Source: a virus. From it: 64,000 nucleotides of DNA. The DNA lies in IMG/VR virus record IMGVR_UViG_3300025834_000005; one strand, 5' to 3'. Positions 49 to 58,548 of this stretch are shown piece after piece. The translations under genes and the position numbers were made by a program. Within the stretch, counting starts at the first letter, position 1. Each line of letters begins with the position of its first letter. The notes under the pieces are model-generated. The model was not told the DNA's origin. It searched no databases and worked only from the letters and a program-made list of their open reading frames with translations.

Positions 49-78
49 TGTAACCTTTTGAATTGATTTACGTATAAC
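49..78 (+). promoter_or_regulatory. phage-type promoter motif TGTAACC-N13-TACGTATAAC
   Basis: copy 1; upstream of 107..322. Confidence 0.6.
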
Positions 79-106
79 ATAGAAACAAACACTAAAAACA
101 TTTAAG

Positions 107-322
107 ATGGCAGTTACAAAAGTTCAAAGCAGATTCTTCGAAAATGAAATGGCTCACAATCCTTCGCTGTATGTTAACAGGAAATGTAATTCAGTTAACC
201 TGACAACATTGGCAGAAAGTTTTATCGACGAACATTCACCGTCGAATCAGGAACAGGTTTATGAGGGTGCTGTTGATTGGTACAAAAATTGGAGAGGTAA
301 AGTAGGTTACAACAACAATTAA
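107..322 (+). CDS. hypothetical protein, 71 aa
   Basis: track ORF; ATG downstream of promoter motif 49..78; hairpin terminator 373..410 follows. Confidence 0.6.
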   Translation: MAVTKVQSRFFENEMAHNPSLYVNRKCNSVNLTTLAESFIDEHSPSNQEQVYEGAVDWYKNWRGKVGYNNN

Positions 323-372
323 AATATTTTTTTCATTCCTTTTAGTTTTAAGTTTTATTAATTATTTGTTAG

Positions 373-410
373 GCATCGGAAGGTATCATGAACCCTTTCG
401 ATGCTTTTTT
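373..410 (+). terminator. intrinsic terminator
   Basis: GCATCGGAAGG / CCTTTCGATGC stem followed by T6. Confidence 0.7.
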
Positions 411-487
411 GCAATGTACTGGTTTTAATTAAAAATGCAATGTACAGAAGAAACTAATCTTAATTAAAAACACATTGTGCGATTCTT

Positions 488-517
488 TGTAACCTTTTTA
501 TTTAATTTACGTATAAC
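488..517 (+). promoter_or_regulatory. phage-type promoter motif
   Basis: copy 2; upstream of 533..994. Confidence 0.6.
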
Positions 518-532
518 ATAGAAACAAATACC

Positions 533-994
533 ATGAGATCAATAGAATATCTTGTTCAATTATTTCCTGATAAAACATGTAGAGAGATTCTGGCTATTCA
601 AACAGCAGATAAGCTCGAAGACGACATGAAGTATGAAAAGGTTAACAAAAAGAAGTTGAAGTTCATCGAAGATCATAATACCAATGGTGGATATTATTGT
701 GGTCGGTTCGGCAGTGACCAACGTTATTTCTATCGAGTTTTCAATATGAGAATGGAAGGCTCTGATATCTATATGGACGTTGAAACTTTGGTAGTCTTTA
801 TGAATCAGGAAGGCGTTAAACATCAGGTAACAAAAACTGGCGATGTTAGCGTGGAAAGGCGTACCAAAGTATGGCAGAAGGAAGACACTTACTGTTTGGA
901 AAACAGGGAACGAGTAACAAAAAAAGAATGGGATGCTATTAATGATTATGTTAATAATCTGGCAAAGTTCTGGGATCATATCAAAAAAGTGTAA
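533..994 (+). CDS. hypothetical protein, 153 aa
   Basis: promoter motif 488..517 upstream; TAA stop lies inside next promoter motif (TGTAACC). Confidence 0.65.
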   Translation: MRSIEYLVQLFPDKTCREILAIQTADKLEDDMKYEKVNKKKLKFIEDHNTNGGYYCGRFGSDQRYFYRVFNMRMEGSDIYMDVETLVVFMNQEGVKHQVTKTGDVSVERRTKVWQKEDTYCLENRERVTKKEWDAINDYVNNLAKFWDHIKKV

Positions 995-1019
995 CCTTTT
1001 TGATTCATTTACGTATAAC
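990..1019 (+). promoter_or_regulatory. phage-type promoter motif
   Basis: copy 3; upstream of 1035..1244. Confidence 0.6.
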
Positions 1020-1034
1020 ATAGAAACAAAAGCC

Positions 1035-1244
1035 ATGAGAGAAATAACATTCGAAGTAACATTGAGGTTCAGTTCAAAGGTAACAGCTGACGAGGAAATT
1101 CTTGAAGTTCAGCAAAACATATTGGATGCGATTGTTAGACAAGCTGAAAGTGCAATTCTCGCACCATTGGATAGTGATGCATTCACAACAAATATTAAAG
1201 TGTTTGAACCGTTAACACAGGTTGCAGTGTCACACACTTTTTAA
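1035..1244 (+). CDS. hypothetical protein, 69 aa
   Basis: internal ATG of track ORF 933..1244; the first 34 residues of the track ORF are just a translation of promoter motif 990..1019. Confidence 0.6.
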   Translation: MREITFEVTLRFSSKVTADEEILEVQQNILDAIVRQAESAILAPLDSDAFTTNIKVFEPLTQVAVSHTF

Positions 1245-1307
1245 TTAAAAATATAGTCTTGAGTTTGTTTTAGTTTTAAGTTTGTTTATGTATTTGCCCC
1301 GAAAAGT

Positions 1308-1337
1308 TGTAACCTTTTTGGGGCATTTGCGTATAAC
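1308..1337 (+). promoter_or_regulatory. phage-type promoter motif
   Basis: copy 4 (TTGCGTATAAC); TTGTAAC sits in the loop of the GCCCCGAAAAG/CTTTTTGGGGC hairpin. Confidence 0.6.
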
Positions 1338-1360
1338 ATAGAAACAAACACTTTAAAGAT

Positions 1361-1759: not shown

Positions 1760-1779
1760 GATTTTAAATTAAAAACGAT

Positions 1780-3710: not shown

Positions 3711-3742
3711 AAAAAGGTTGCAATTAATTTTGTAACCTTTTT
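3711..3742 (+). terminator. hairpin sharing its 3' arm with promoter motif 3731..3760
   Basis: AAAAAGGTTGCA-N8-TGTAACCTTTTT. Confidence 0.55.
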
Positions 3743-3760
3743 TTATGGTTTACGTATAAC
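3731..3760 (+). promoter_or_regulatory. phage-type promoter motif
   Basis: copy 7; upstream of 3776..4039. Confidence 0.6.
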
Positions 3761-4370: not shown

Positions 4371-4400
4371 TGTAACCTTTATTTTCCATTTACGTATAAC
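4371..4400 (+). promoter_or_regulatory. phage-type promoter motif
   Basis: copy 8; upstream of 4416..4730. Confidence 0.6.
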
Positions 4401-4941: not shown

Positions 4942-4971
4942 TGTAACCTTTTGGATTCATTTACGTATAAC
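4942..4971 (+). promoter_or_regulatory. phage-type promoter motif
   Basis: copy 9; upstream of 4993..5229. Confidence 0.6.
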
Positions 4972-5400: not shown

Positions 5401-5430
5401 TGTAACCTTTTTAAAGTATTTACGTATAAC
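5401..5430 (+). promoter_or_regulatory. phage-type promoter motif
   Basis: copy 10; upstream of noncoding unit 5431..5925. Confidence 0.6.
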
Positions 5431-5925
5431 ATAGAAACAAAGCATAAACAATTAAAACTTTCATCATGAAAAAGAATTAATAAAAATATTCAGATAGGGC
5501 TTATCAATCTCAGGTAGGTAAAGCGGAATAAGGCTGAACATCTATATAAGAAAAGCGAAAGCAAACATCCGCACAGGTTTGCAATTAGCAGTGGACGCAT
5601 TAAAAGGAAGCGTACATGAAAAACATTGGAGGAAATATATAACAAGTACTTCAAATTCCTTTTCTTTAATCGTGACGTTTTTGAAAAGAGTGAGTAGTTT
5701 CGGATGCGGTTAGAGTAATAAGTTAAACGAAAGCGATGATCTTGAGGGAGCAAATAAAAAACTCCAAGTGATTAGTTCATAGCATGTTAACGTAATTTGT
5801 TTTGGGTTTATTCAGGTACGTTGACGCTCACTTAAGATCATTTACAATATTATATTACCTGTATGGGTAATAAACCCGATAAATAACCTGTATGGGTTTA
5901 TTTACCGATTAAAAATAAATCATTT
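5431..5925 (+). ncRNA. candidate large (about 500 nt) noncoding transcript
   Basis: promoter motif 5401..5430 is followed only by a 4-codon mini-ORF (5466..5480); purine-rich, GCGAAAGC-type loops, 12-bp hairpin 5866-5877/5894-5906. Confidence 0.3.
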
Positions 5926-5950
5926 GAATTTCAAGTTTGTTTGTTTGTTT

Positions 5951-5978
5951 AAAAGGTTACATTAATTTGTAACCTTTT
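5951..5978 (+). terminator. hairpin sharing its 3' arm with promoter motif 5968..5997
   Basis: AAAAGGTTACA-N6-TGTAACCTTTT followed by a T-run. Confidence 0.55.
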
Positions 5979-5997
5979 TTTTGTGTTTACGTATAAC
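5968..5997 (+). promoter_or_regulatory. phage-type promoter motif
   Basis: copy 11; upstream of 6013..6432. Confidence 0.6.
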
Positions 5998-6012
5998 AAA
6001 GAAACAAACGAT

Positions 6013-6432
6013 ATGAATACTAAACAGTGTTTAAATTGCGGTCACAACAATATCAATGGCGTTGTTAAAATTGATGACTTAGGTTCGCATATGATCTGCA
6101 AGAAATGTTGTTCATCCTTTGATACGATTGTTGAGGCGAATGACTCTTATACAATAGGTTATTCTTATTTAAAAAACAAATACGGCTACAAAGGTATTGT
6201 CTATACATCGGCATTCAGAGAGAAACTTCATAAGACTTATTCAGTTAAAGCTCGTAGGGAATTGGAAGCAAATGCAACCGAAAAGGATTATCACACTTTT
6301 TTAAAACCCATTGACAAAGATAACTTTGATGACAGATGCATCGAATTATTATTAGGTCAGTATTATTATGGCTATACGATTAGATTCGAATTGTTTGATA
6401 AGCTATGCAGTATGGGTATCATTAGTTTGTAA
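6013..6432 (+). CDS. Cys-rich (CxxC...CxxC) zinc-ribbon-like protein, 139 aa
   Basis: start after promoter motif 5968..5997; CLNCGHNN...CKKCC near N-terminus; stop in next promoter motif. Confidence 0.6.
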   Translation: MNTKQCLNCGHNNINGVVKIDDLGSHMICKKCCSSFDTIVEANDSYTIGYSYLKNKYGYKGIVYTSAFREKLHKTYSVKARRELEANATEKDYHTFLKPIDKDNFDDRCIELLLGQYYYGYTIRFELFDKLCSMGIISL

Positions 6433-6457
6433 CCTTTTCAATTCATTTACGTATAAC
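6428..6457 (+). promoter_or_regulatory. phage-type promoter motif
   Basis: copy 12; upstream of 6472..6714. Confidence 0.6.
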
Positions 6458-6731: not shown

Positions 6732-7112
6732 ATGAAAGACAAATGCGAAGAAAGTGGAACATTTAAATATAACTGTACAGTATATGAGTTTAAAAGTGGC
6801 TCAATAGGTTCATACTTTACTGAACGATACTACGGTGGCTCGAATGAAATATTCGTTTCAGTCGTTGTTCCCGAAGAGATATACGTTTTAATTAAAAACA
6901 TGAATGCTGACATGTTGGATTGGAGTAGCAATGATAATGTTATCGCATTTCATAAATGGTTGAATACCATTAGCTTAAGCCAGGTTTATGATGATATGCT
7001 TATCGAGGGTAAGCTACTTGAATACTTAGGCGACATGGAATGGAAATTTAAAACAACAGAAGAACTCATTGAACACGTGACAAAAAAGATCATAGAGTTT
7101 AAAGCTTTGTAA
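6732..7112 (+). CDS. hypothetical protein, 126 aa
   Basis: TTAATTAAAAAC junction before ATG; stop in promoter motif 7108..7137. Confidence 0.6.
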   Translation: MKDKCEESGTFKYNCTVYEFKSGSIGSYFTERYYGGSNEIFVSVVVPEEIYVLIKNMNADMLDWSSNDNVIAFHKWLNTISLSQVYDDMLIEGKLLEYLGDMEWKFKTTEELIEHVTKKIIEFKAL

Positions 7113-7137
7113 CCTTTTATTTTCATTTACGTATAAC
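7108..7137 (+). promoter_or_regulatory. phage-type promoter motif
   Basis: copy 13; upstream of 7153..7422. Confidence 0.6.
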
Positions 7138-7433: not shown

Positions 7434-7679
7434 ATGGAGAATAATATTATCGCATTGGTTGACAACTTCATTAAAACCTATGGAGTCAAAGTAAAAAACA
7501 AAGAAACAGATGCTTATGTTGAACTCATGATGGATGATCATGATTGTATTGAAAAAAGCAAGTACTATAAAAATGGCTCGGTTAAGGTAGAACAGTTCTA
7601 CATACCTCAGAACAATTCCTTTTACACTGATAACGACGACCTGTTAAGATTGATGATCGTTGCTCATTTCGGATTGTAA
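7434..7679 (+). CDS. hypothetical protein, 81 aa
   Basis: TTAATTAAAAAC junction; stop in promoter motif 7675..7704. Confidence 0.6.
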   Translation: MENNIIALVDNFIKTYGVKVKNKETDAYVELMMDDHDCIEKSKYYKNGSVKVEQFYIPQNNSFYTDNDDLLRLMIVAHFGL

Positions 7680-7704
7680 CCTTTTACTTTCATTTACGTA
7701 TAAC
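7675..7704 (+). promoter_or_regulatory. phage-type promoter motif
   Basis: copy 14; upstream of 7724..8584. Confidence 0.6.
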
Positions 7705-8584: not shown

Positions 8585-8614
8585 TGTAACCTTTTAATTT
8601 CATTTACGTATAAC
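8585..8614 (+). promoter_or_regulatory. phage-type promoter motif
   Basis: copy 15; upstream of 8633..8983. Confidence 0.6.
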
Positions 8615-8994: not shown

Positions 8995-9162
8995 ATGCAA
9001 AGACAAGAATTAATTGATGCTGTTATTCAGCAGTTAAAATCCGATATTGAAAGTAACGATGTTACTGTATTGAATGAGTTATTGCATGAGGTTGATACAA
9101 TGACTCTTATCCAATCATTACCTGAGTCTGAACATGAGAAATACATTAAAGAATTATTGTAA
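8995..9162 (+). CDS. hypothetical protein, 55 aa (below ORF-track cutoff)
   Basis: hand-translated MQRQELIDAVIQQLKSD...; TTAATTAAAAAC junction; stop in promoter motif 9158..9187. Confidence 0.45.
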   Translation: MQRQELIDAVIQQLKSDIESNDVTVLNELLHEVDTMTLIQSLPESEHEKYIKELL

Positions 9163-9187
9163 CCTTTTAAATTGATTTACGTATAAC
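9158..9187 (+). promoter_or_regulatory. phage-type promoter motif
   Basis: copy 16; upstream of 9206..9395. Confidence 0.6.
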
Positions 9188-9683: not shown

Positions 9684-9713
9684 TGTAACCTTCTTGGGGC
9701 TTTTACGTATAAC
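9684..9713 (+). promoter_or_regulatory. phage-type promoter motif
   Basis: copy 17; TTGTAAC in the loop of the GCCCTGAGAAG/CTTCTTGGGGC hairpin; ATG 9719 only 5 nt downstream. Confidence 0.55.
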
Positions 9714-10121: not shown

Positions 10122-10151
10122 TGTAACCTTTTATTTTCATTTACGTATAAC
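10122..10151 (+). promoter_or_regulatory. phage-type promoter motif
   Basis: copy 18; upstream of candidate sRNA 10152..10230. Confidence 0.6.
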
Positions 10152-10230
10152 TAAATGGTTGACAACAGAGACGGCGTCGAGAGAGTGGACTCCACAGTGC
10201 CTTATAGTCTGGGTTTAGAACCATTCTTAA
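10152..10230 (+). ncRNA. candidate small RNA between two promoter motifs
   Basis: no ORF; closing stem AATGGTT (10154-10160) / AACCATT (10219-10225); internal GC-rich hairpins (GACggcGTC, GTGGactCCAC). Confidence 0.3.
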
Positions 10231-10242
10231 TAAGGAATGATC

Positions 10243-10272
10243 TGTAACCTTTGCAAACCATTTACGTATAAC
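10243..10272 (+). promoter_or_regulatory. phage-type promoter motif
   Basis: copy 19; upstream of 10304..11116. Confidence 0.6.
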
Positions 10273-10303: not shown

Positions 10304-11116
10304 ATGGAATTTACGACAATCGGAAAAGCGAAAAAAGAAACAGGTTTATCTTATTTAGGTGGTATCAATATTTCTTCGAAATTGACCAAAAACATGAAAG
10401 TCAATGTAATGACTTACTGTATCTATCTTTCACCTGCACACACATCTGGCTATGATGTTTGTCCAGAATCTACTTATGAGTGCCGTTTGGGTTGCTTAGC
10501 TACATCAGGACGTGCTGCAATGGATATTATTTCAGGCAAAAATGTGATCGGCAAAGCTCGAATCAAAAAAACTGAACTGTTCTTTGAACATAATGAGTAC
10601 TTTATGAACTGGCTTGTTGCTGAAATGACAGCGGCGAAAAAGAAAGCCGACAAACAAGGTTTTGTGTTTTCTGCACGTTTGAACGGAACGTCGGATATTG
10701 ATTGGGCAAATACTATGTTAAACGGAAAAAACATCTTCCAAATTTTTGATACGACATTGTTTTACGATTACACAAAAATCGTATCAAAGTTTGACAATAT
10801 CGCACCGAATTACTCTTTAACATATTCTTATACAGGTCGCAATTGGGCTATGTGTGCGAAGTTAATGGACAAAGGTTTTAACGTTGCTATGATCTTCAAT
10901 GTAAAGGATGAAAAATACCTGCCTGCAATGTACAAAGGTTATAACGTTGTGAACGGCGATTTAAATGATTACCGTATTGCAGACGCAAAGGGTATCATTG
11001 TAGGTCTTAAATGGAAAAGAATACAAAACAAAGAAGCCGAAAAGAAAGTGCTTAATTCAGTGTTCGTTGTGAACGTTGAGGGTCTTTCGAAAGAGTTTAC
11101 CAATGTACCAAAGTAA
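10304..11116 (+). CDS. hypothetical protein with Cys cluster (CPESTYECRLGC), 270 aa
   Basis: promoter motif 10243..10272 upstream; strong terminator 11128..11168 downstream. Confidence 0.7.
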   Translation: MEFTTIGKAKKETGLSYLGGINISSKLTKNMKVNVMTYCIYLSPAHTSGYDVCPESTYECRLGCLATSGRAAMDIISGKNVIGKARIKKTELFFEHNEYFMNWLVAEMTAAKKKADKQGFVFSARLNGTSDIDWANTMLNGKNIFQIFDTTLFYDYTKIVSKFDNIAPNYSLTYSYTGRNWAMCAKLMDKGFNVAMIFNVKDEKYLPAMYKGYNVVNGDLNDYRIADAKGIIVGLKWKRIQNKEAEKKVLNSVFVVNVEGLSKEFTNVPK

Positions 11117-11633: not shown

Positions 11634-11822
11634 ATGGCAAAGTATAAAATTGATAAGTTTGTACGTACAGATAAGGAACCTGCAATGCATATGGTAATGT
11701 ACAATAAAATATCTGAGGGTATTGAAAGAGAATTAAAACGACAGAAAGCAGCTGGCAAAAAGTTTATCAGTGATGAAGAAATTGATAAACTTGTCGATGA
11801 TGCTATTAAAGAATGCATGTAA
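11634..11822 (+). CDS. hypothetical protein, 62 aa
   Basis: TTAATTAAAAAC junction; stop in promoter motif 11818..11847. Confidence 0.55.
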   Translation: MAKYKIDKFVRTDKEPAMHMVMYNKISEGIERELKRQKAAGKKFISDEEIDKLVDDAIKECM

Positions 11823-11847
11823 CCTTTTCAATTCATTTACGTATAAC
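11818..11847 (+). promoter_or_regulatory. phage-type promoter motif
   Basis: copy 20; upstream of 11863..12219. Confidence 0.6.
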
Positions 11848-12278: not shown

Positions 12279-12308
12279 TGTAACCTTTTATATCATTGTA
12301 CGTATAAC
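12279..12308 (+). promoter_or_regulatory. phage-type promoter motif
   Basis: copy 21 (CATTGTACGTATAAC variant); upstream of 12325..12585. Confidence 0.55.
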
Positions 12309-12925: not shown

Positions 12926-12955
12926 TGTAACCTTTTTTATCATTGTACGTATAAC
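12926..12955 (+). promoter_or_regulatory. phage-type promoter motif
   Basis: copy 22 (CATTGTACGTATAAC variant); upstream of 12982..13530. Confidence 0.55.
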
Positions 12956-14209: not shown

Positions 14210-14779
14210 TCAATTAACCCATACGAGCTTATCGATCTCTTCGTTGATGATCTTCTTAATATTGATTTGGTTTTCTAATAAATTAACACTACCTTTGTCG
14301 GCTCTGTATATGTTAAACACAATGTCCTCTGGCATATGCTTCTTAATTAAAAAGTATGCCTCAATGTCTTTACCCCTATCATCATATACATCAATAGCTT
14401 TTATGTTCCTCTCCCATCTAAGGAAATCATAAATCCTTTCACCCTTGTCAACATTATGATCATTCATAAAGATACCATCAACCTCAATGCCATTCTTATT
14501 TAAAACCTTTATAAGATCAGGTCTCAATGCTTCAATCCTACTGGTTAATATAATAACCATTGTATTAGGATTAGCACCTTCTTTGGCTAATATGTTAGCT
14601 ATATCATTGTACGGTTTAATATCAAACACATCAATGTCCAAGCTGGCTGGTGAACTCCACCAACCCTTATCAGGAAAATCTTTGCCAGTCCTTTCCTTAT
14701 ATAATACCATACCTTCCTCTGGTGATGGGGAATTCATAAGTGTTCCGTCAAAATCAAATGCTACCAATTTCGTTATCAT
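14210..14779 (-). CDS. HAD-superfamily phosphatase / nucleotidase-like protein
   Basis: MITKLVAFDFDGTL (DxDGT motif I), ILTSR (motif II), VYDDRGKD (motif III-like); start moved to the ATG just before the DxD motif. Confidence 0.7.
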   Translation of the reverse strand: MITKLVAFDFDGTLMNSPSPEEGMVLYKERTGKDFPDKGWWSSPASLDIDVFDIKPYNDIANILAKEGANPNTMVIILTSRIEALRPDLIKVLNKNGIEVDGIFMNDHNVDKGERIYDFLRWERNIKAIDVYDDRGKDIEAYFLIKKHMPEDIVFNIYRADKGSVNLLENQINIKKIINEEIDKLVWVN

Positions 14780-14962
14780 CAATGTACAGTTTAATCTAAA
14801 TACTATTTTAATTAAAAACCATTGTACGACCATCTGTACCATTGTACGAGAACCTTATCGACACCACAAAAGTAGTTATTATAAATGAATCCACCAAATA
14901 AAATGTGGGAATATTGTAAACTTTTATCGGAATAATGTAACTATTAGGCTTGTACATGATAT

Positions 14963-15536: not shown

Positions 15537-15566
15537 TGTAACCTTTTTATTTCTTATACGTATAAC
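15537..15566 (+). promoter_or_regulatory. phage-type promoter motif
   Basis: copy 23; upstream of 15584..15922. Confidence 0.6.
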
Positions 15567-15933: not shown

Positions 15934-15963
15934 TGTAACCTTTTATAAATAATTACGTATAAC
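15934..15963 (+). promoter_or_regulatory. phage-type promoter motif
   Basis: copy 24; upstream of 15979..16920. Confidence 0.6.
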
Positions 15964-17498: not shown

Positions 17499-17528
17499 TG
17501 TAACCTTTCAGGTTGTTTTACGTATAAC
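17499..17528 (+). promoter_or_regulatory. phage-type promoter motif
   Basis: copy 25; upstream of 17555..18061. Confidence 0.6.
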
Positions 17529-18077: not shown

Positions 18078-18107
18078 TGTAACCTTTTATATTTTTCCAC
18101 GTATAAG
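18078..18107 (+). promoter_or_regulatory. phage-type promoter motif
   Basis: copy 26 (CACGTATAAG variant); upstream of 18136..18936. Confidence 0.5.
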
Positions 18108-18955: not shown

Positions 18956-18986
18956 AAAAGGTTATGGCTTAAAGTTGTAACCTTTT
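18956..18986 (+). terminator. hairpin sharing its 3' arm with promoter motif 18976..19005
   Basis: AAAAGGTTA-N13-TAACCTTTT. Confidence 0.45.
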
Positions 18987-19005
18987 TTATTTTATAACGT
19001 ATAAC
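18976..19005 (+). promoter_or_regulatory. phage-type promoter motif
   Basis: copy 27; identical over all 30 nt to copy 40. Confidence 0.6.
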
Positions 19006-20939: not shown

Positions 20940-20970
20940 TTGTGGTATTCGATAATTATATTTATCTTTG
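20940..20970 (+). promoter_or_regulatory. host-type (Bacteroidota sigmaA-like) promoter
   Basis: TTG-N20-TATCTTTG (TAnnTTTG), 17 nt before ATG 20988. Confidence 0.55.
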
Positions 20971-21437: not shown

Positions 21438-21468
21438 AAAAGGTTATGACTTTAAGTTGTAACCTTTT
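21438..21468 (+). terminator. hairpin sharing its 3' arm with promoter motif 21458..21487
   Basis: AAAAGGTTA-N13-TAACCTTTT. Confidence 0.45.
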
Positions 21469-21487
21469 TTATTTGTTTACGTATAAC
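21458..21487 (+). promoter_or_regulatory. phage-type promoter motif
   Basis: copy 28; upstream of 21504..22034. Confidence 0.6.
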
Positions 21488-22402: not shown

Positions 22403-22433
22403 TTGCCGTATTTAATAAATATATGTACTTTTG
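22403..22433 (+). promoter_or_regulatory. host-type (Bacteroidota sigmaA-like) promoter
   Basis: TTG-N20-TACTTTTG before ATG 22451. Confidence 0.55.
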
Positions 22434-22450: not shown

Positions 22451-22708
22451 ATGGGCTTTGTAAAATCTATTAATATTATGACAACAGTTAAAGCTAAATT
22501 TACATGTAGTTCCGTTATAGCTAATGCATACGGAAATTCAACAACGGCACATTTTCATGCTGTATATGGCAGCAACGGCGAAAACGCTGATTATGCGAAA
22601 GCAACTCCCTGCGGAAACATTTCGATTGTAATTGATAATGATGTACCTGCTTCGAAATTCTTTGAACAAGGCACAGACTATTATTTAACCTTCGAAGCCG
22701 TTAAATAA
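22451..22708 (+). CDS. hypothetical protein, 85 aa (alternative start 22478)
   Basis: host-type promoter TTG-N20-TACTTTTG at 22403..22433. Confidence 0.55.
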   Translation: MGFVKSINIMTTVKAKFTCSSVIANAYGNSTTAHFHAVYGSNGENADYAKATPCGNISIVIDNDVPASKFFEQGTDYYLTFEAVK

Positions 22709-22804: not shown

Positions 22805-22834
22805 TGTAACCTTTTTGTTTTGTTTACGTATAAG
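22805..22834 (+). promoter_or_regulatory. phage-type promoter motif
   Basis: copy 29 (TATAAG variant); upstream of 22849..23100. Confidence 0.5.
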
Positions 22835-42687: not shown

Positions 42688-43190
42688 TGGACAAGCAAAT
42701 TACATTTGAGACTGCAAAACTGGCAGCAGAAAAGGGCATTACAAAGGCTTTCTTTCAACGTGATATGTTATCGTCGGATATGAGTCATATGTATCATCCT
42801 GATGGCATGTATGGTGCTTATAATGACTATCATGAGTGTTTCAGAGTCTATGACCCTAAGAATCCTAATCAGACTGTCATACCTATGAAATATTCAGAGC
42901 TAACGCAATCCATGACCCAGACGAGATTGCAAACAATATTGCGAAATTATTATGATATTAATGTTGCGGTGTCATTTAAACCAAATACAAAAAAATGGGA
43001 TTTTATCACATACTCTATGTCATTGAATGGTAAAGAGTATACCGAGTATTATTACCAATATTACACAACACGAAAAGGCAGAGAGTACGATTCATATGAA
43101 GATGCTTTAGAAGAAGCTTTAAAAGAGGGAATTTCTTTATCAAAGGATTGTAACCTTTTCAAACCTTTTACGTATAACATAGAAAATTAG
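42687..43190 (+). CDS. paralog family A member (long)
   Basis: MDKQITFETAKLAAEKGI, TQTRLQTILRNYYDINVAV, YEDALEEALKEGI; reading frame runs through promoter motif 43149..43178. Confidence 0.6.
   Translation: MDKQITFETAKLAAEKGITKAFFQRDMLSSDMSHMYHPDGMYGAYNDYHECFRVYDPKNPNQTVIPMKYSELTQSMTQTRLQTILRNYYDINVAVSFKPNTKKWDFITYSMSLNGKEYTEYYYQYYTTRKGREYDSYEDALEEALKEGISLSKDCNLFKPFTYNIEN
43149..43178 (+). promoter_or_regulatory. phage-type promoter motif
   Basis: copy 45; lies inside the 3' end of 42687..43190; upstream of 43194..43448. Confidence 0.6.
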
Positions 43191-45210: not shown

Positions 45211-45240
45211 TGTAACCTTTTCGATTCATTTACGTATAAT
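45211..45240 (+). promoter_or_regulatory. phage-type promoter motif
   Basis: copy 46 (TATAAT); upstream of 45259..45426. Confidence 0.6.
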
Positions 45241-45427: not shown

Positions 45428-45457
45428 TGTAACATTTTTTAATAAATTACGTATAAT
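45428..45457 (+). promoter_or_regulatory. phage-type promoter motif
   Basis: copy 47 (TGTAACA, TATAAT); upstream of 45475..45846. Confidence 0.55.
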
Positions 45458-45474: not shown

Positions 45475-45846
45475 ATGATAAAAAATTTCGAGGAAATTAC
45501 AGTTGGGTTGACAGCAAGGGAATTAAACATAATACCTATTTTTATTAAATTCATTTCGGATTACGATCAATCTAATCCGATTAAGGCATCTAAAATTGTT
45601 GCAGCACTGGACGAGATTTTAGAGGCTCAGGGGTTGGGAATTAAGATGAATGAGGTGAGAGTACGTAAATGCTCCAATCACATCAGAACCAATTCTCTGC
45701 TACCTTTAATCGCAACGTCTAAAGGATATTTTGTGTCTTATGATCAGGACGTTATTGCCATGCAAATTCAGAGTTTATATGAACGTGCCGAAGCTGTAAA
45801 TGCGTCGGCTGATGGATTATCACTATTTGTGAATAATAATAAATAA
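45475..45846 (+). CDS. hypothetical protein, 123 aa
   Basis: variant promoter motif 45428..45457. Confidence 0.6.
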   Translation: MIKNFEEITVGLTARELNIIPIFIKFISDYDQSNPIKASKIVAALDEILEAQGLGIKMNEVRVRKCSNHIRTNSLLPLIATSKGYFVSYDQDVIAMQIQSLYERAEAVNASADGLSLFVNNNK

Positions 45847-46403
45847 TGAATATTCTCAAACTATCACAGATTCGTAAGCCATTAAACTTTAAGGTTCAAA
45901 TGGGAATCAGCATGGATATACATGATATGATTGATGGTCATTATGGGGACGTTATGGATTTTGATGTTTATTTACCGACAAAAGGAATGAATCTACAACG
46001 TCCTTTGGTTTGGTCTGATGAACAGAAACAGGAATTTGTTATCTCAGTACTGAAAGGTATTGAGGTAGCATCTATTTCTGTCATAATTTATAGGGATGAT
46101 ACCTTGAATAGTAATCATACTCGTCTCATTAAAGTTATTGATGGTAAGCAGAGAATAACAACGCTTATGTCCTTCATTCAAAATGAGTTTCCATTAGTCA
46201 TTAATGGCGATAAGTATTTCTATAACGATATGGAAGATATAGCTAAGTCTGTTCTCAGATCATTTTGGTTTAGGAGTAACAGAGTTTATGAATACCCTGA
46301 CAAACTGATTTCAGATGATGATAAGATCGCTTGGTTTGAAATGATTAACTTTTCTGGAACACCACAAGATGTTGCTCACTTAAATAATTTGAAAAAAGTG
46401 TAA
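45846..46403 (+). CDS. DUF262-like (ParB-fold, DGxQR) protein, 185 aa
   Basis: VIDGKQRITTLMSF and MINFSGTPQ; stop in promoter motif 46399..46428. Confidence 0.6.
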   Translation: MNILKLSQIRKPLNFKVQMGISMDIHDMIDGHYGDVMDFDVYLPTKGMNLQRPLVWSDEQKQEFVISVLKGIEVASISVIIYRDDTLNSNHTRLIKVIDGKQRITTLMSFIQNEFPLVINGDKYFYNDMEDIAKSVLRSFWFRSNRVYEYPDKLISDDDKIAWFEMINFSGTPQDVAHLNNLKKV

Positions 46404-46428
46404 CCTTTTGAATCCATCTACGTATAGC
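46399..46428 (+). promoter_or_regulatory. phage-type promoter motif
   Basis: copy 48 (CTACGTATAGC); upstream of 46452..46721. Confidence 0.55.
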
Positions 46429-47766: not shown

Positions 47767-48180
47767 ATGAAAGCATTTAAAGCATGGATTAATCATCTGG
47801 TATTAAAATATGTCGGAAGAATTGAATATGTCGTCACATCAGTTCATGTAAGTGGAAGCGTTGATGTCGGAAATTACAGCACATTAAAAGACGTTAATGC
47901 GTTTGTGAATGACATTAATACTGACAGGTATTGGGACGTCCAGAAAATAGAAAAGTTCAGAAGATATGATTTCAAATATCATAAGGAAGTTTTACATTCG
48001 CCAATGCACTTTCGTATTGAAAATGTGACTGAAATGGAAACACTCAACACTTATGCTTTTTGTTTTTTACTGAAACATAAAAGCTTAACAAACACTCGCC
48101 GTGTTAGTTCGAAGAATGCTATAGACGAAGAAACCTTCCTGAATAAAGATTTCAGCGAGGTTACCAACCAATTTTTGTAA
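47767..48180 (+). CDS. hypothetical protein, 137 aa
   Basis: stop in promoter motif 48176..48205. Confidence 0.6.
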   Translation: MKAFKAWINHLVLKYVGRIEYVVTSVHVSGSVDVGNYSTLKDVNAFVNDINTDRYWDVQKIEKFRRYDFKYHKEVLHSPMHFRIENVTEMETLNTYAFCFLLKHKSLTNTRRVSSKNAIDEETFLNKDFSEVTNQFL

Positions 48181-48205
48181 CCTTTTTATTTCATTTACGT
48201 ATAAC
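48176..48205 (+). promoter_or_regulatory. phage-type promoter motif
   Basis: copy 49; upstream of 48220..48516. Confidence 0.6.
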
Positions 48206-49279: not shown

Positions 49280-49309
49280 TGTAACCTTATTTGTCGTTTT
49301 TCGTATAAC
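49280..49309 (+). promoter_or_regulatory. phage-type promoter motif
   Basis: copy 50 (TTCGTATAAC); upstream of 49326..49607. Confidence 0.55.
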
Positions 49310-49325: not shown

Positions 49326-49607
49326 ATGAAAAATTCAAAGACAGTTGTTAAAGGCGATAAGACTTTTGTTTACACCTTAGTTAAAGGTGCTATAAAGGAA
49401 CATGACTTTGTGGTATCTAAACGTTACTTCGAACTGATGGATGAAAACGGAATGTTTTTAGCTCGAATCATAGACAGACTATGTCCCATTGAAATCATTG
49501 AGGTAAAAATGTATAACGGAGAATTAGCAGCTAATTGGTATATTGGAGAATCATTAACAAAACGATGTTCAATTGTGAACGTTGAAATATTGCACAATAA
49601 ACTGTAA
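49326..49607 (+). CDS. hypothetical protein, 93 aa
   Basis: promoter motif 49280..49309; stop in promoter motif 49603..49632. Confidence 0.6.
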   Translation: MKNSKTVVKGDKTFVYTLVKGAIKEHDFVVSKRYFELMDENGMFLARIIDRLCPIEIIEVKMYNGELAANWYIGESLTKRCSIVNVEILHNKL

Positions 49608-49632
49608 CCTTTATATTTCATTTACGTATAAC
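49603..49632 (+). promoter_or_regulatory. phage-type promoter motif
   Basis: copy 51; upstream of 49648..50103. Confidence 0.6.
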
Positions 49633-51097: not shown

Positions 51098-51127
51098 TGT
51101 AACCTTTTTATCTCATTTACGTATAAC
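51098..51127 (+). promoter_or_regulatory. phage-type promoter motif
   Basis: copy 52; upstream of 51146..51376. Confidence 0.6.
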
Positions 51128-51600: not shown

Positions 51601-51929
51601 TGAAATCATTAAGAAACTTCGAATCAAAATATCTCACAGCCGAAATAATCGAATATATAAAAAGTGAAGGCTTCGAGCATCATGGAAATGATAGCTATTG
51701 TTTTAAGGAAACTGACTTAGAATGGGTTGATTTTTGTTATTTCAAACATATCGACGAATGCCAAACATTTTGCATAAATGTCTACATATTCGATAACATG
51801 ATCGGTGTTGATGTTGACTATAATTGTGGTGGAAATCTTGCCACATATACTTGGAAGTTTGTTCATTATGACTTCGAAAAAGCATATGATCATATGGTTG
51901 ATATTGTTAAAAGATATGTTAGCCAATGA
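51600..51929 (+). CDS. hypothetical protein, 109 aa
   Basis: TAATG overlap. Confidence 0.55.
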   Translation: MKSLRNFESKYLTAEIIEYIKSEGFEHHGNDSYCFKETDLEWVDFCYFKHIDECQTFCINVYIFDNMIGVDVDYNCGGNLATYTWKFVHYDFEKAYDHMVDIVKRYVSQ

Positions 51930-52600
51930 ATAATATGCTTGACGATGTTATCGAAATAAAAGATCACAGGCTGAACCCTTTGGATATCATAATACTGATT
52001 TTATCTATATATGTGCTTGGCGTTGTGGTTATTGACACATTATGGGTGTTACCAGCAGAAATATCGAGACTATTAAGTTATATCGACAACATAATATGCG
52101 TTGTGTTTTTTTATGACTTCGTAACAAACTTTCGTAAAGCGAAGAATAAATTAAAGTTTATGCGATTAGGTTGGATTGATCTACTATCGTGTATACCTAT
52201 GGTTGATTACTTACGTGCTGGTAGAATGCTTAGACTTATACGATTAATTCGTGTTGTGAGAGCATTTAAGACCACCAATCATTTAGTTAATCACATCTTT
52301 GCCAATAAATCAAAAGGTGCTCTAACGTCTGTCTTTGTCGTAGCAATGCTATTTGTATTATTCTCAGCGATAGCGATTCTTGAAGTTGAGAACGACCCTA
52401 ATAGTAACATAAAAACTGCCGAGGATGCTATTTGGTGGGCGTATGTTACTGTTACAACTGTTGGGTATGGTGATAAATTTCCAGTAACAACAGAGGGCAG
52501 AGTTATTGCAGCAGCTTTAATGACCGTAGGCGTAGGCTTATTCGGTACATTCACCGCATATATTTCATCATTATTTGTAACTAATAGTAAAAATCCGTAA
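51926..52600 (+). CDS. voltage-gated-type (6-TM) potassium channel
   Basis: selectivity filter TVTTVGYGD; S4-like RMLRLIRLIRVVRAFK with Arg at every third position; about six hydrophobic helices in 224 aa. Confidence 0.85.
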   Translation: MNNMLDDVIEIKDHRLNPLDIIILILSIYVLGVVVIDTLWVLPAEISRLLSYIDNIICVVFFYDFVTNFRKAKNKLKFMRLGWIDLLSCIPMVDYLRAGRMLRLIRLIRVVRAFKTTNHLVNHIFANKSKGALTSVFVVAMLFVLFSAIAILEVENDPNSNIKTAEDAIWWAYVTVTTVGYGDKFPVTTEGRVIAAALMTVGVGLFGTFTAYISSLFVTNSKNP

Positions 52601-52625
52601 CATTTTATAATTAGTTACGTATAAC
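52596..52625 (+). promoter_or_regulatory. phage-type promoter motif
   Basis: copy 53 (CGTAACA); upstream of 52641..52805. Confidence 0.55.
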
Positions 52626-53365: not shown

Positions 53366-53395
53366 TGTAACCTTTCGACATTATTTACGTATAAC
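53366..53395 (+). promoter_or_regulatory. phage-type promoter motif
   Basis: copy 54; upstream of 53414..53722. Confidence 0.6.
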
Positions 53396-55445: not shown

Positions 55446-55475
55446 TGTAACCTTTATTTACTAATTACGTATTTA
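55446..55475 (+). promoter_or_regulatory. phage-type promoter motif (degenerate)
   Basis: copy 55: same geometry, but TACGTATTTA replaces TACGTATAAC. Confidence 0.4.
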
Positions 55476-55994: not shown

Positions 55995-56024
55995 TGTAAC
56001 TTTTTTTTTGTGCTTACGTATAAC
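55995..56024 (+). promoter_or_regulatory. phage-type promoter motif
   Basis: copy 56 (TGTAACT); upstream of 56039..56317. Confidence 0.55.
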
Positions 56025-56317: not shown

Positions 56318-56661
56318 AGGTAATAATTGCTGGCGGTAGAGACTTCAAAGATTACGAATATCTTTCGACGTGCTGTGATAAATATCTAAGCAAACAGACC
56401 GAAATTGAGATCGTAAGCGGTGCTGCTAATGGTGCTGATAAGCTCGGAGAGAGGTACGCCAAAGAAAAAGGCTACCCAATATCAAGTCACCAAGCTGATT
56501 GGGATAGGTACAAAAAGAGTGCTGGCTACATAAGGAATAAAGAAATGGCAGAATACGCCGATGCTTTAATCGCTTTCTGGGATGGTAAGAGTAAGGGTAC
56601 TAAGCATATGATTGATCTTGCCAGAGAATTAGGATTAAAAGTTCGAATAATTTCCTATTAA
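56314..56661 (+). CDS. SLOG/DUF2493-family protein
   Basis: MKVIIAGGRDF...VSGAANGADKLGERYAKEKG...ADWDRYKKSAGYIRNKEMAEYADALIAFWDGKSKGTKHMIDLA matches my memory of the DUF2493 pattern. Confidence 0.7.
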   Translation: MKVIIAGGRDFKDYEYLSTCCDKYLSKQTEIEIVSGAANGADKLGERYAKEKGYPISSHQADWDRYKKSAGYIRNKEMAEYADALIAFWDGKSKGTKHMIDLARELGLKVRIISY

Positions 56662-56663
56662 GT

Positions 56664-56693
56664 TGTAACCTTTTTATTTCATTTACGTATAAC
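56664..56693 (+). promoter_or_regulatory. phage-type promoter motif
   Basis: copy 57; upstream of 56708..57310. Confidence 0.6.
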
Positions 56694-56707
56694 ATAGAAA
56701 ATTAGAT

Positions 56708-57310
56708 ATGATCTCAGCAAATATTACAACATACATTGGTCAAGACTCTGATGCTCAGCACTATTACTGTAATTACTTTGACAGTCCTAATATATATGGA
56801 TTGCCTAAAGAACGTTATTCTGTGGGTAGAAATGAGGATATCGACTTAGATCGAATTATTACTGACCCACACGAAGTCTTAAGGATGAACGATAAACACG
56901 ATAGATGGTATATCGGTATGGAAACTGCCAGATACAATTCAGTCGAACAGATTCATGCTAAATTGTTGGAACTCTTTCCTAATGAGGATATGATCACATA
57001 TTATGAAGATAAGCTTTTCAAGGAAACTATATACATCAAGGACGGCATCAATTTAGGCGTCAAGGCATTTGGCGAAGTTTGGACATATGCCCCAAGCTCA
57101 TACTATAAAGATTTAATATCTGATGATGTTGTTGTGAAAATCAAATGTGATGATTGTGGGCATGAGTATACTCTCGATGAAGTAACCTATGAACAAGAAA
57201 CTATTGATCATGAGGGTAAAACGAGAGATTGGGTTCGTTTCACTAAAAAAAGAGACATGGATGAAGTATGTTGCAAACATTTTAATTTACTCTGGAACGT
57301 AATATTATGA
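56708..57310 (+). CDS. hypothetical protein, 200 aa
   Basis: promoter motif 56664..56693. Confidence 0.65.
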   Translation: MISANITTYIGQDSDAQHYYCNYFDSPNIYGLPKERYSVGRNEDIDLDRIITDPHEVLRMNDKHDRWYIGMETARYNSVEQIHAKLLELFPNEDMITYYEDKLFKETIYIKDGINLGVKAFGEVWTYAPSSYYKDLISDDVVVKIKCDDCGHEYTLDEVTYEQETIDHEGKTRDWVRFTKKRDMDEVCCKHFNLLWNVIL

Positions 57311-57786
57311 AAAACTATTTTTGGGTGAAGCCTAATTATTCATGGTGTAAAACTGACTATTTATTGGCTTATAAAAGTGACTCTGAATACATTTCAGTTG
57401 AAAATGGCGAACGTTATGGCGATATTCATTTATTCAATGTAATACCTATAAAAAAACCTGTGTTCGTACAAAAAACAAAAATTACGACAAAGGAAACTGG
57501 CGACATAATGAATGTCTTAAGAACTAAAGGCATTATTAATAATGGTGTGGCTTATGTAACAGGAAAATGGCTAAAGCCCTGTGCAAAGGGATATGGCTTA
57601 AATCCTAAAGACATTAAAGACGACGCATTTTACTATGTTTCTGATGGTAGGTGGGAATTTAAACCAAAAGAGGTTTCACCATTTTATGTATCAGAACATA
57701 TCATTCAATACTGTAATGAGAGCATTCTTGAGCATAATAATAAAACCGATACAGATTACGATTGCATGGAAGCTTGGAATCAATAA
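57307..57786 (+). CDS. hypothetical protein, 159 aa
   Basis: ATGA overlap. Confidence 0.6.
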   Translation: MKNYFWVKPNYSWCKTDYLLAYKSDSEYISVENGERYGDIHLFNVIPIKKPVFVQKTKITTKETGDIMNVLRTKGIINNGVAYVTGKWLKPCAKGYGLNPKDIKDDAFYYVSDGRWEFKPKEVSPFYVSEHIIQYCNESILEHNNKTDTDYDCMEAWNQ

Positions 57787-57950
57787 AATATTGCGGAACG
57801 CACGTCCCTATCAACGTGGCTAAAGTAAATGAATGGGGAATTATAGAGATTTCTACAGGTAACGCAGCCATCTCTTAATAGTGAAGTTGTTCTAACTCGT
57901 CGTTGAGGACAGCCTTTAATAATAAAGGGTTGGGCAAATAGTTATGGATA

Positions 57951-57980
57951 ATAAGCCTGTAGTGTTACTTACAGGCTTAT
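57951..57980. terminator. bidirectional terminator between convergent genes
   Basis: ATAAGCCTGTA / TACAGGCTTAT 11-bp stem, T-rich on the + side. Confidence 0.65.
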
Positions 57981-58477
57981 TTCTTTTTATATAATATACT
58001 GTTAGATATCTCGATCAAATCAGAAGTGTGAATCTTTGACATAACGTCTTTCCGATCACTACGCTGATATTTGTAATTGAATTCTGGCGTTGGTTTGAAT
58101 TCGTCAAATACTTTCTCTTTCATATATTTCTGTAAAGCATATTTACCAACAATGATAAATGAATCCTTTTGTTCGAATGCGAAAAAATCAGCCTTACCAT
58201 ATGCCCATCCTTCAAAGCCTCCAACATTTTTAAATTCAATATAGTGAATAGTTTCGTCAACATCTTCATCTGATCTTAAAGTTTTCTTCATACTTTTAAC
58301 ATCAAATAATAGTCTGCATTGTTGTGGCGTACCAAAATACAGATGCACGCCAACATCCCAATGCTCTTTCATGTCCTGATAAGGTGTTGATTTAAAAGCT
58401 GTTTTAAATAATTTAGCAAACTCAATTTCACATGGCGTTGCATTTGCAAAACATCTATCAATTTCGTCTTGTAGCAT
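57977..58477 (-). CDS. PD-(D/E)xK nuclease-like protein (putative), 166 aa
   Basis: LLFDVKS ... IEFKNV gives D-x22-ExK spacing; divergent from cas3; TATCTTTG box on the - strand at 58494..58501. Confidence 0.5.
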   Translation of the reverse strand: MLQDEIDRCFANATPCEIEFAKLFKTAFKSTPYQDMKEHWDVGVHLYFGTPQQCRLLFDVKSMKKTLRSDEDVDETIHYIEFKNVGGFEGWAYGKADFFAFEQKDSFIIVGKYALQKYMKEKVFDEFKPTPEFNYKYQRSDRKDVMSKIHTSDLIEISNSILYKKK

Positions 58478-58493
58478 AATTCTATATTTTATA

Positions 58494-58501
58494 CAAAGAT
58501 A
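58494..58501 (-). promoter_or_regulatory. TAnnTTTG (-7) box for 57977..58477
   Basis: - strand TATCTTTG 16 nt before the ATG; no clear -33 TTG. Confidence 0.35.
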
Positions 58502-58518
58502 TAAAATATATCACTATT

Positions 58519-58548
58519 TGTAACCTTTTTTAATCATTTACGTATAAT
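58519..58548 (+). promoter_or_regulatory. phage-type promoter motif
   Basis: copy 58 (TATAAT); 17 nt upstream of the cas3 ATG 58566. Confidence 0.6.

Follow-up and report, generated by a model that had tools for sequence, protein, structure and literature searches.

A large array of probable extracytoplasmic function sigma-type promoters in a huge phage and its likely phage-encoded reader

The virus record IMGVR_UViG_3300025834_000005 includes a 64,000-nucleotide (nt) stretch of DNA, hereinafter the window, in which a 30-nt promoter-like motif recurs 58 times. We hold with high confidence that each copy is a promoter of the type read by extracytoplasmic function (ECF, group 4) sigma factors, because TGTAAC-C-TTTT...CGTA matches each published rule for such promoters (PMC5758882). 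Two phage genes for ECF-like sigma factors, sigma1 and sigma2, lie upstream of the window, and a cascade in which host sigmaA makes sigma1, which then drives a very large early regulon, is the reading that we consider probable. Specifically, on infection host RNA polymerase with Bacteroidota sigmaA would transcribe sigma1 from a promoter with a TAccTTTG box, and sigma1 would direct the core polymerase of the host to at least 76 promoters of near-identical sequence, each built of a −35 element TGTAAC, a C and a T-tract, a 16-bp spacer and a −10 element CGTA(TAAC). These promoters would serve every one to three small, mostly unknown genes, a few noncoding RNAs, the genes for a DNA and an RNA ligase and an operon of the CRISPR-Cas system, while sigma2 would be a second phage ECF sigma inside the array.

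The pattern TGTAACC-N13-TACGTATAAC was searched on both strands of the whole window. There are 39 exact matches, whereas 100 shuffles that preserve dinucleotides contain none; when up to three mismatches are allowed, the number rises to 57, all on the + strand, against 0.17 expected by chance. One extra copy at 41667-41695 (copy 44) has perfect boxes and a spacer of N12, bringing the total to 58: 39 exact, 18 with one to three mismatches and one with the spacer shorter by 1 nt. A first-pass annotation of this DNA had given the same count, the same single strand and identical spacing in all copies except copy 44, and had singled out copy 55 (55446) as the only one with a damaged 3' box; all of this is reproduced, and the damaged box reads TACGTATTTA. 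The only near-match on the − strand (at 28201; three mismatches, N12) is the complementary hairpin arm at copy 34 and was rejected as a copy.

The distance from the end of the motif to the ATG that opens an open reading frame (ORF) is 3-34 nt in 55 copies, with a median of 16 and most values at 14-18. Past the copies at 5401, 35051 and 36748 there is noncoding or long-leader DNA. The placement of copies shortly before an ATG or a noncoding unit, as described at first pass, is thus confirmed, as is their density of one per one to three genes: about 133 + strand ORFs of at least 50 amino acids (aa) cover 85% of the window, which gives one copy per 2.3 genes. Copies also precede noncoding units, which shows that the element signals transcription, not translation.

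An information-content profile over all copies indicates that the conserved block exceeds 30 nt and consists of tTGTAACCTTTT, 7-8 variable nt, TTTACGTATAAC and atAgAAA. The array extends past both window ends, with at least 76 copies in an 83-kb composite that includes flanking DNA. In its first ~20 kb (window −6.7 to +12.9 kb) there are 35 near-perfect copies, about one per gene, with a leader that is mostly ATAGAAACAAAC; beyond this part, the array thins out, its copies are more degenerate and their leader becomes ATAGAAAATA. Over the 76 copies TGTAAC and CGTAT are 99-100% conserved, a T-tract follows the −35 element and the variable middle has a fixed length.

ECF promoters are defined by AAC in the −35 element, CGT in the −10 element and spacers of 14-17 bp (PMC5758882). 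In the array, A, A and C of the AAC core within TGTAAC are each present in 75-76 of 76 copies. CGTAT, with its CGT core, is present in 76 of 76, partly since the search required it; CGTA is also unchanged in divergent relatives in which neighbouring bases differ. Of the 58 window copies, 57 have a spacer of 16 bp from TGTAAC to CGTA and one has 15 bp. The first-pass annotation had placed the boxes in another register, TTGTAA-N19-TATAAC, which is not upheld, since what stays invariant is (T)GTAAC and, at a distance of 16 nt, CGTA(T)AA. Its statement that the element is not of the sigmaA type holds: the Bacteroidota sigmaA consensus is TTG-N19-21-TAnnTTTG (PMC7366714), and the −7 box TAnnTTTG is absent from the motif. 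Full matches to this consensus occur separately on the + strand of the window, eight in number versus 3.0 ± 1.5 in shuffles, and promoters of the E. coli sigma70 type are not enriched in the window (94 found, 94.8 expected).

Arrays of the same design are present in related contigs, designated here by L numbers. The array of L007 has TCGTATAAT with leader cttaaacaaaca, that of L009 has TGTAACATT with a 14-nt gap, those of L005, L013, L015 and L016 have AACGTATAAG, and that of L001 has AACGTAGAAC. Across these contigs (T)GTAAC and CGTA stay constant at 16 bp apart, occasionally 15 or 17. Related phages and host genomes, considered together, differ in the final C, in the bases ahead of CGT and in the T ahead of TGTAAC, and share (T)GTAAC and CGTA(T)AA. 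Boxes are also kept and spacers diverged between orthologous copies, an illustrative comparison for which only five pairs could be matched.

The window lies in a circular huge-phage genome of ~328 kb (328,334-328,453 bp in independent assemblies from several samples), which is complete or nearly so; the assembly start points are circularly permuted. A near-identity search against GenBank phages gave no match, nor did look-ups in IMG/VR. About 94 kb of the genome, the window and its flanks, was inspected. The 135 window proteins include neither an RNA polymerase nor a sigma factor, and no polymerase domain was seen in the 94 kb. The first-pass annotation had pointed beyond the window for sigma-like genes, and two phage sigma genes are indeed located just upstream: sigma1 (184 aa; L022:1934-2488), 7.5-7.0 kb upstream of window position 1, and sigma2 (180 aa; L022:5174-5716), inside the array.

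Both proteins contain only the domains Sigma70_r2 (residues 11-79) and r4_2 (120-171) and no region 1.1 or 3, which at a length of about 170-220 aa is the ECF architecture. Their best match among solved structures is B. subtilis SigW (E = 3e-13 for sigma1 and 1e-9 for sigma2), and all their matches in PDB are ECF sigmas. The only NCBIfam model that they pass is the generic TIGR02937, which also scores RpoD; their best matches after this generic sigma-70 model are ECF-type families, with the curated subfamily models Sig70_bacteroi1, BldN, SigM and SigW giving 58-87 bits against cut-offs of 126-243. Sigma1 and sigma2 are thus ECF-like in architecture and outside any named subfamily. Both are only ~25-33% identical to anything beyond this phage group, and between relatives sigma2 is better conserved than sigma1 (63% versus 41%). 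An ORF encoding a hydrophobic protein of ~50 aa follows sigma1; no co-transcribed anti-sigma, which is typical and not defining of the family, was recognized.

Other phages associated with Bacteroidota commonly carry distant ECF-like sigma genes (22-30% identity), several of which are annotated as 'sigma-W factor'. Such phages include Bacteroides phages DAC16-23 (H11-H15), the crAss-like phages cr1_1, cr55_1, cr272_1 and cr273_1 (H18-H24) and Rhodothermus phage RM378 (H6). Within 20 kb of the sigma gene, no GTAAC-N16-CGT array is present in DAC19 or in cr1_1, the two that were checked.

The position of sigma1 relative to the array is informative. The gene is located at a divergence point of the genome, and no motif occurs within it or in the 2.7 kb that covers it and its upstream DNA. 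The first copy lies 277 nt past its stop codon, and the next 17.7 kb contain a further 32. Upstream of sigma1, a sigmaA −7 box, TACCTTTG (TAccTTTG), lies 41 nt before the ATG. The order of sigmaA box, ECF sigma gene and array start recurs in L025/L007, L009 and L034, and in L097 the array begins 8 nt after a truncated sigma gene. In four lineages a TAnnTTTG box lies some 35-50 nt ahead of the ATG of the sigma gene at the head of the array. A phage sigma is favoured as the reader of the array because a motif-less head-of-array sigma gene with a sigmaA box recurs across lineages. The gene for sigma2 has a sigmaA-type box of its own, conserved in the relative L025; it lies downstream of five copies, and read-through from the copy at L022:4492 is also possible.

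The same motif is found in host genomes. The exact 30-nt pattern gave 39 matches in one genome each of 185,579 species, never more than one per locus, and 34 of the 39 are in Bacteroidota. About 12 matches lie 30-50 nt upstream of rpoD, the gene for a 287-aa primary sigma, mainly in Flavobacteriales, and in Bacteroidales ~15 have a position upstream of queA (loci L145-L182, among them L158:5909-5938, L152:5752-5781 and L146:2102-2131). The 8-kb loci around the host rpoD and queA copies contain no ECF sigma gene. Because the motif is single-copy and conserved in host genomes, it is a native Bacteroidota promoter type and not a repeat of the repetitive extragenic palindromic (REP) kind, the alternative against which the first-pass annotation had set its promoter claim.

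In Flavobacterium psychrophilum, promoters termed 'SM6/SigECF' have the form GTAAC-N16-CGT(ATAAC) and mapped transcription starts (Guerin et al. 2021, PMC9723704). This class includes tttGTAACtttcgatacaaactagCGTATAACcaatA, and the F. psychrophilum rpoD promoter is aTGTAACtttttgcaaactcatTACGTATAACcacttG (PMC9723704). The promoter claim of the first-pass annotation is therefore sustained by a motif with mapped starts in a Bacteroidota host. In Table S2 of the same study (−50 to +10), four N16 SM6 promoters have their start 12 nt past the C of CGT, and the rpoD promoter, TGTAAC-N17-TACGTATAAC, has it 13 nt past this C. These data put the start 5 nt past TATAAC, within the 5-10 nt anticipated at first pass. 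Transferred to the phage consensus CGTATAACATAGAAAC, they predict a start at the A 5 nt past TATAAC, within the conserved AGAAA, and phage leaders are predicted to be 10-14 nt long, A-rich and devoid of a Shine-Dalgarno sequence. The gene at 9719 (copy 17) would then have an essentially leaderless mRNA. The B. thetaiotaomicron 'PM2' motif was considered as a host counterpart and rejected, since published descriptions give it a near-palindromic form and TGTT at −10.

Which factor reads the array has to be weighed against these host data. We infer that the reader is a phage sigma and not a host ECF sigma, and likewise the phage start site and the early timing. Several observations pull the other way. 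The exact motif stands upstream of rpoD and queA in uninfected Bacteroidota genomes, and because it is present in phage-free hosts, such hosts have an ECF sigma of the same specificity, which could serve the phage promoters alone. Mapped starts come from host promoters, and those of the phage are predictions transferred from them. Position is no proof of the reader, because both phage sigma genes have sigmaA-type boxes. The genes neighbouring the phage sigmas have no recorded anti-sigma domain, which is unusual for cellular ECF sigmas and expected for a phage. The clustering of the head-of-array sigmas, apart from a sigma2 clade, comes from a rough neighbour-joining sketch without support values, and with ~94 of 328 kb inspected, transcription factors or a polymerase may be encoded elsewhere in the genome. 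It is accordingly conceivable, if rather unlikely, that the array is read by the host ECF sigma of the rpoD/queA/SM6 regulon and that the phage sigmas serve other promoter classes, e.g. late ones. Each of 34 Bacteroidota genomes has one copy of the motif, which in ~27 cases is located upstream of rpoD or queA, host starts are mapped at such promoters without a phage, and at ~25-33% identity outside the group the specificity of the phage sigmas is unreadable from homology. Nevertheless, the array starts right after a motif-less, sigmaA-boxed phage sigma gene in at least four lineages, a layout expected if the sigma is needed first, and a minor host sigma, usually gated by stress, would have to be shared by at least 76 consensus promoters. 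Furthermore, L009 and L097 pair a sigma1-type gene with an array and have no sigma2-type gene in the sequence seen. Within the phage, it is improbable that sigma2 reads the motif and sigma1 serves another class. The separate sigmaA-type box of sigma2, its conservation (which parallels that of the motif) and its best structural match, also SigW, speak for sigma2, whereas its place within the array after five copies, possible read-through from L022:4492 and the grouping of other lineages' head-of-array sigmas with sigma1 speak against it. The first-pass proposal of a phage sigma or an alternative host sigma as reader thus gains from the two ECF-type sigma genes upstream, while its proposal of a phage RNA polymerase or an appropriator is not supported, given the ECF-holoenzyme geometry and the use of the promoter by phage-free hosts.

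A promoter for a phage RNA polymerase (T7-like, or multisubunit as in phiKZ/AR9), or a sigmaA promoter TTGTAA/TATAAC with a 19-nt spacer, is extremely improbable. The length and conservation of the motif do recall T7-type promoters, and a polymerase gene could lie in the part of the genome beyond the 94 kb. Against this, the layout is bipartite with AAC and CGT cores around a fixed-length variable middle, the same motif works in phage-free hosts, and neither the 135 window proteins nor the flanks contain a polymerase domain. As for sigmaA, the TAnnTTTG box that it needs in Bacteroidota is absent from the motif and present elsewhere, and among relatives TATAAC and the T before TGTAAC vary where CGTA and GTAAC do not. 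We also regard as very improbable that the copies are mainly recombination or mobility cassettes, or selfish repeats like REP or miniature inverted-repeat transposable elements (MITEs), without an essential role in transcription. Gene order is mosaic among relatives, and ends of alignment blocks fall within 30 nt of a copy in 27% of cases versus 11% at random positions (relatives 70-90% identical), a weak enrichment that is partly an artefact because alignments anchor on the motifs. The hairpin-plus-promoter build of some copies resembles the promoter early stem-loops (PeSLs) of T4-like phages (PMC4122927); PeSLs are themselves real promoters, so that this would be an added role and not an alternative. 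REP and MITE repeats are further at odds with single-copy host matches at promoters with mapped starts, and with phage copies in strictly one orientation at a fixed distance from start codons. Promoter-like behaviour, namely a single strand, a distance of mostly 14-18 nt from an ATG and copies that also precede noncoding RNAs, is what the sigma1 cascade calls for.

The individual copies, all on the + strand, are exact unless mismatches are stated, and are given below with the position of the following ATG. Those with no other feature are copies 1 (49-78; ATG 107), 2 (488-517; 533), 8 (4371-4400; 4416), 9 (4942-4971; 4993), 15 (8585-8614; 8633), 21 (12279-12308; 12325), 22 (12926-12955; 12982), 23 (15537-15566; 15584), 24 (15934-15963; 15979), 25 (17499-17528; 17555), 31 (23649-23678; 23695), 32 (25060-25089; 25104), 35 (29917-29946; 29961), 38 (34312-34341; 34376), 52 (51098-51127; 51146), 54 (53366-53395; 53414) and 57 (56664-56693; 56708), together with copies 40 (36434-36463; 36477) and 46 (45211-45240; 45259), with one mismatch each, and copies 26 (18078-18107; 18136), 37 (33023-33052; 33070), 43 (40978-41007; 41040) and 47 (45428-45457; 45475), with two each. 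Copy 19 (10243-10272; 10304) precedes a GP88-family gene, copy 42 (37660-37689; 37705) an operon with the DNA ligase gene (37875-39242), and copy 58 (58519-58548; 58566; one mismatch) cas3. Copy 45 (43149-43178; 43194) lies inside the 3' end of ORF 42687-43190. The degenerate copy 55 (55446-55475; 55493) has three mismatches, all past CGTAT, and an intact TGTAAC-N16-CGTA.

At 13 copies the TAA stop of an upstream ORF lies inside the TGTAAC hexamer. These are copies 3 (990-1019; ATG 1035; ORF 533-994), 5 (2045-2074; 2097; ORF 1780-2049), 12 (6428-6457; 6472; ORF 5983-6432), 13 (7108-7137; 7153; ORF 6732-7112), 14 (7675-7704; 7724; ORF 7434-7679), 16 (9158-9187; 9206; ORF 8995-9162), 20 (11818-11847; 11863; ORF 11634-11822), 36 (31234-31263; 31280; ORF 31059-31238), 49 (48176-48205; 48220; ORF 47767-48180) and 51 (49603-49632; 49648; ORF 49326-49607), as well as copies 30 (23096-23125; 23140; ORF 22849-23100; one mismatch, CGTAACC), 48 (46399-46428; 46452; ORF 45846-46403; one mismatch) and 53 (52596-52625; 52641; ORF 51926-52600; two mismatches). 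At about 14 further copies the upstream stop lies 1-4 nt before the motif.

In 11 copies TGTAACCTTTT(T) forms the descending arm and U-tract of a stable hairpin, the opposite arm of which is AAAAGGTTACA; three copies carry the −35 hexamer in the hairpin loop, and the remaining copies have no strong hairpin. The −35 element is part of a terminator-like hairpin at copies 7 (3731-3760; ATG 3776), 11 (5968-5997; 6013) and 27 (18976-19005; 19024; one mismatch). At copy 6 (2682-2711; 2733) the −35 element and the T-tract are the 3' arm of the hairpin AAAAAGGTTACA/TGTAACCTTTTT. Hairpins that include the −35 element are also present at copies 28 (21458-21487; 21504), 29 (22805-22834; 22849; one mismatch), 33 (26261-26290; 26305), 34 (28223-28252; 28270), which has the strongest one (−26.5 kcal/mol), 44 (41667-41695; 41711; distance from TGTAAC to CGTA 15) and 56 (55995-56024; 56039; one mismatch). 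The loop copies are 4 (1308-1337; 1361; one mismatch; hairpin of −18 kcal/mol), 17 (9684-9713; ATG 9719, 5 nt past the motif) and 50 (49280-49309; 49326; one mismatch). The hairpin-bearing copies are composite terminator/promoter units and, with 11 arm and three loop copies, combine a stem-loop with a presumably early promoter as PeSL cassettes do.

Four copies are followed by noncoding or long-leader DNA. Copy 18 (10122-10151) precedes a conserved noncoding unit of ~90 nt at 10152-10242 (+), between copies 18 and 19, which is a candidate small noncoding RNA. Its 3' half (CCTTATAGTCTGGGTTTAGAACCATTCTTAATAA, with a small hairpin) is conserved in the divergent relatives L094, L009, L092 and L066, always directly after a motif copy, and the 30-codon ORF that follows the copy at 10122 is probably spurious. 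Copy 41 (36748-36777; one mismatch) precedes a tRNA-like noncoding unit of ~160 nt (36778-36940, +) that is 94.5% identical in L016 together with its promoter. This unit has an 8-bp acceptor-like stem, a D-arm-like segment, a T arm GGTTCGATTCC and an insertion of ~64 nt. Only under relaxed settings does ARAGORN report it, as a 'tRNA-Ile(aat) with intron'; default ARAGORN reports no tRNA or transfer-messenger RNA in the window, and Rfam, whether in gathering or in E-value mode, gave no relevant match to the noncoding units. Copy 10 (5401-5430) is followed by a five-codon ORF and ~540 nt (5431-5967) without a long + strand ORF, a stretch with no convincing ORF that is predicted to be highly structured. 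Copy 39 (35051-35080; one mismatch) is followed by a leader of ~195 nt (35081-35275) with three to four direct repeats resembling GTAAACGATGCT, and then by the RNA ligase gene at 35276.

Only 21 Pfam families match the 135 window proteins. They include GmrSD_N (three proteins), GP88, ion channel, NUDIX, glucosaminidase, DNA ligase, RNA ligase and HAD_SAK_1, in addition to helix-turn-helix proteins, Cas3 and Cas6; by Pfam, no structural, replication-core, polymerase or sigma gene is among the 135. Such a profile plausibly marks the window as an accessory or host-takeover region, consistent with early expression. Of the very large early regulon proposed at first pass, the size is thus borne out by at least 76 copies, and 'early' is plausible from position and gene content.

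The phage has a CRISPR-Cas system that spans 58566-64000 of the window and continues to L018:11520. It comprises cas3 (HD and helicase; 58566-60842), with an ECF-type copy upstream, a Cas7fv-like gene (60910-61980), with a sigmaA-type box upstream, a gene at 61970-62803 and cas6 (62807-63541). A CRISPR array begins at 63648, with the 36-nt repeat AGTGGTATATAATTCGATTCTAAAGGGAATCACAAC, a 66-nt period and ~10 repeats, the distal ones degenerate. No cas1 or cas2 is present within 10 kb of the system. The DNA past cas6, in the region of the CRISPR array, differs between the assemblies L017 and L018.

Four TAnnTTTG boxes of the window lie in motif-less intergenic gaps, just 5' of an ATG. Candidate sigmaA-type promoters on the + strand are located at 20940-20970 (TTG-N20-TATCTTTG; full consensus; 17 nt before ATG 20988), at 22403-22433 (TTG-N20-TACTTTTG; full consensus; before ORF 22451-22708) and at 60843-60872 (TTG-N19-TACCTTTG; before the Cas7fv-like gene at 60910), each in a motif-less gap. 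Minus-strand genes break or border the array at L022:1-1933 (7.5-9.5 kb upstream), 14210-14842(−) and 57977-58477(−) of the window. The two upstream minus-strand genes, one of which encodes a DUF932 protein, have a TACCTTTG or TACTTTTG box and a near-identical leader ...ttaacgttaaaaacaaacataatATG, and a full sigmaA consensus is present at 14897(−). The GC skew goes negative at 14-18 kb and at 58-60 kb.

Gene order is mosaic. The GP88-family gene (10304-11116) lies inside the array, and in L025 it lies at 5899-6433, upstream of the sigma1 homologue. In L010 and L012, which were compared with window 19.3-26.3 kb, the genes at 19.3-20.6 kb come after those at 26 kb. A palindrome with a PacI site, TTTTAATTAAAA, occurs at 26 sites (52 strand-matches, 0.85 expected), e.g. 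1240, 4044, 7418, 12588, 20695, 30355, 39663 and 53718. It mostly spans the stop of one gene, 0-12 nt before the next ATG, with some sites inside ORFs, and looks like a standard promoter-less gene junction, often joining genes that are not split by a copy. Another repeated word, CACAATGTTCG (variants GCAATGTACAG and CACATTGTGCG), stands just 5' of several of the first copies, often after TTAATTAAAA; words of this type are located at L022:2730-3000 and at 420-487 of the window. The related phage L007 has GCACAATGTTCG within promoter spacers.

SigW of B. subtilis is restrained by a membrane anti-sigma factor; in contrast, no anti-sigma was seen beside the phage sigmas. Among the promoters of B. 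subtilis SigW, SigX and SigV (ECF01/ECF30-type; Gaballa et al. 2018, PMC5758882), that of SigW, TGAAAC...CGTA, is similar in form, with TGAAAC-N16-CGTA compared with TGTAAC-N16-CGTA in the phage. A homopolymeric T-tract follows the −35 element directly in both, as tGAAACnTTTt in the SigW promoter (PMC5758882) and as TGTAACCTTTT in the phage. SigW nevertheless belongs to another phylum, and the protein identity of the phage sigmas is only ~25-30%. The SM6/SigECF promoters of F. psychrophilum come from the same phylum as the inferred host and have the same boxes and spacing, in two cases with the full CGTATAAC or TACGTATAAC (PMC9723704). These are cellular promoters tied to starvation and type IX secretion genes (PMC9723704), a few dozen per genome with variable boxes (ACAAT, CGTTTT, CGTC), whereas the phage has one near-identical sequence at least 76 times, with a conserved leader. 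A literature search returned no description of this exact motif or of phage ECF promoter arrays in Bacteroidota.

The use of a phage sigma has precedents, and the present case extends this known strategy without overturning it. SPO1 (gp28, gp33/34) and T4 (gp55) use phage sigma cascades that reprogramme the host core enzyme. Jumbo phages of 'group 2' also have no polymerase and encode sigmas (PMC7824862). Common to all of these and to the phage described here are phage sigmas that reprogramme (here, would reprogramme) the host core without a phage polymerase (here, none in the 94 kb inspected); the difference is that the sigmas of SPO1, T4 and jumbo phages are highly diverged or minimal and read promoters unlike those of the host, while here both sigma and promoter are of ordinary ECF type. 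Similar in plan is gp36 of phiEco32, a two-domain phage sigma (sigma2- and sigma4-like) that arises from sigma70/sigmaA early transcription and redirects the host core polymerase to promoters of a phage-specific class (PMC12276001). Promoters of gp36 consist mainly of AATGTA at −11.5, belong to middle and late genes and require the co-factor gp79 (PMC12276001), whereas the phage here has a canonical ECF −35/−10 pair, identical to a host class, that serves an accessory and presumably early region. The PeSLs of T4-like phages are near-identical terminator-promoter units between ORFans in plastic regions (Arbiol et al. 2010, PMC2839356; Comeau et al. 2014, PMC4122927). Their counterpart here is a stable hairpin overlapping the −35 element at ~14 of 58 copies, together with mosaic gene order; PeSL promoters are sigma70 early promoters used by the unmodified host holoenzyme, in contrast to an ECF-type promoter with a phage sigma.

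What distinguishes the system is its scale, the canonical ECF nature of both sigma and promoter, and a promoter identical to a conserved one that precedes rpoD and queA in hosts. The motif itself points to an apparently undescribed, phylum-wide ECF-type promoter before the host housekeeping sigma gene. We raise as a speculative and on balance doubtful idea that the phage sigma/promoter pair copies a phylum-wide host circuit, in which an ECF sigma acts on rpoD in Flavobacteriales and on queA in Bacteroidales through exactly the same 30-nt promoter, and that its promoter-leader units are portable cassettes like PeSLs. If so, one or both of two consequences may apply: the phage sigma could also activate host rpoD and thereby keep sigmaA available for the phage genes with sigmaA-type promoters, and a stress-induced host ECF sigma could fire the array, tying the phage programme to starvation. 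Units of ~45 bp of promoter plus leader, some of them fused to a terminator, may also carry single accessory genes between huge phages together with their expression signal. The compact sigma/promoter pair with its 10-14-nt leader is a possible orthogonal expression part for the tool-poor Bacteroidota. For an uncultured 328-kb phage, the array provides a testable programme of one sigma gene, one promoter sequence and at least 76 transcription units, and it marks ~170 mostly unknown genes, including CRISPR-Cas, ligases and small RNAs, as co-regulated.

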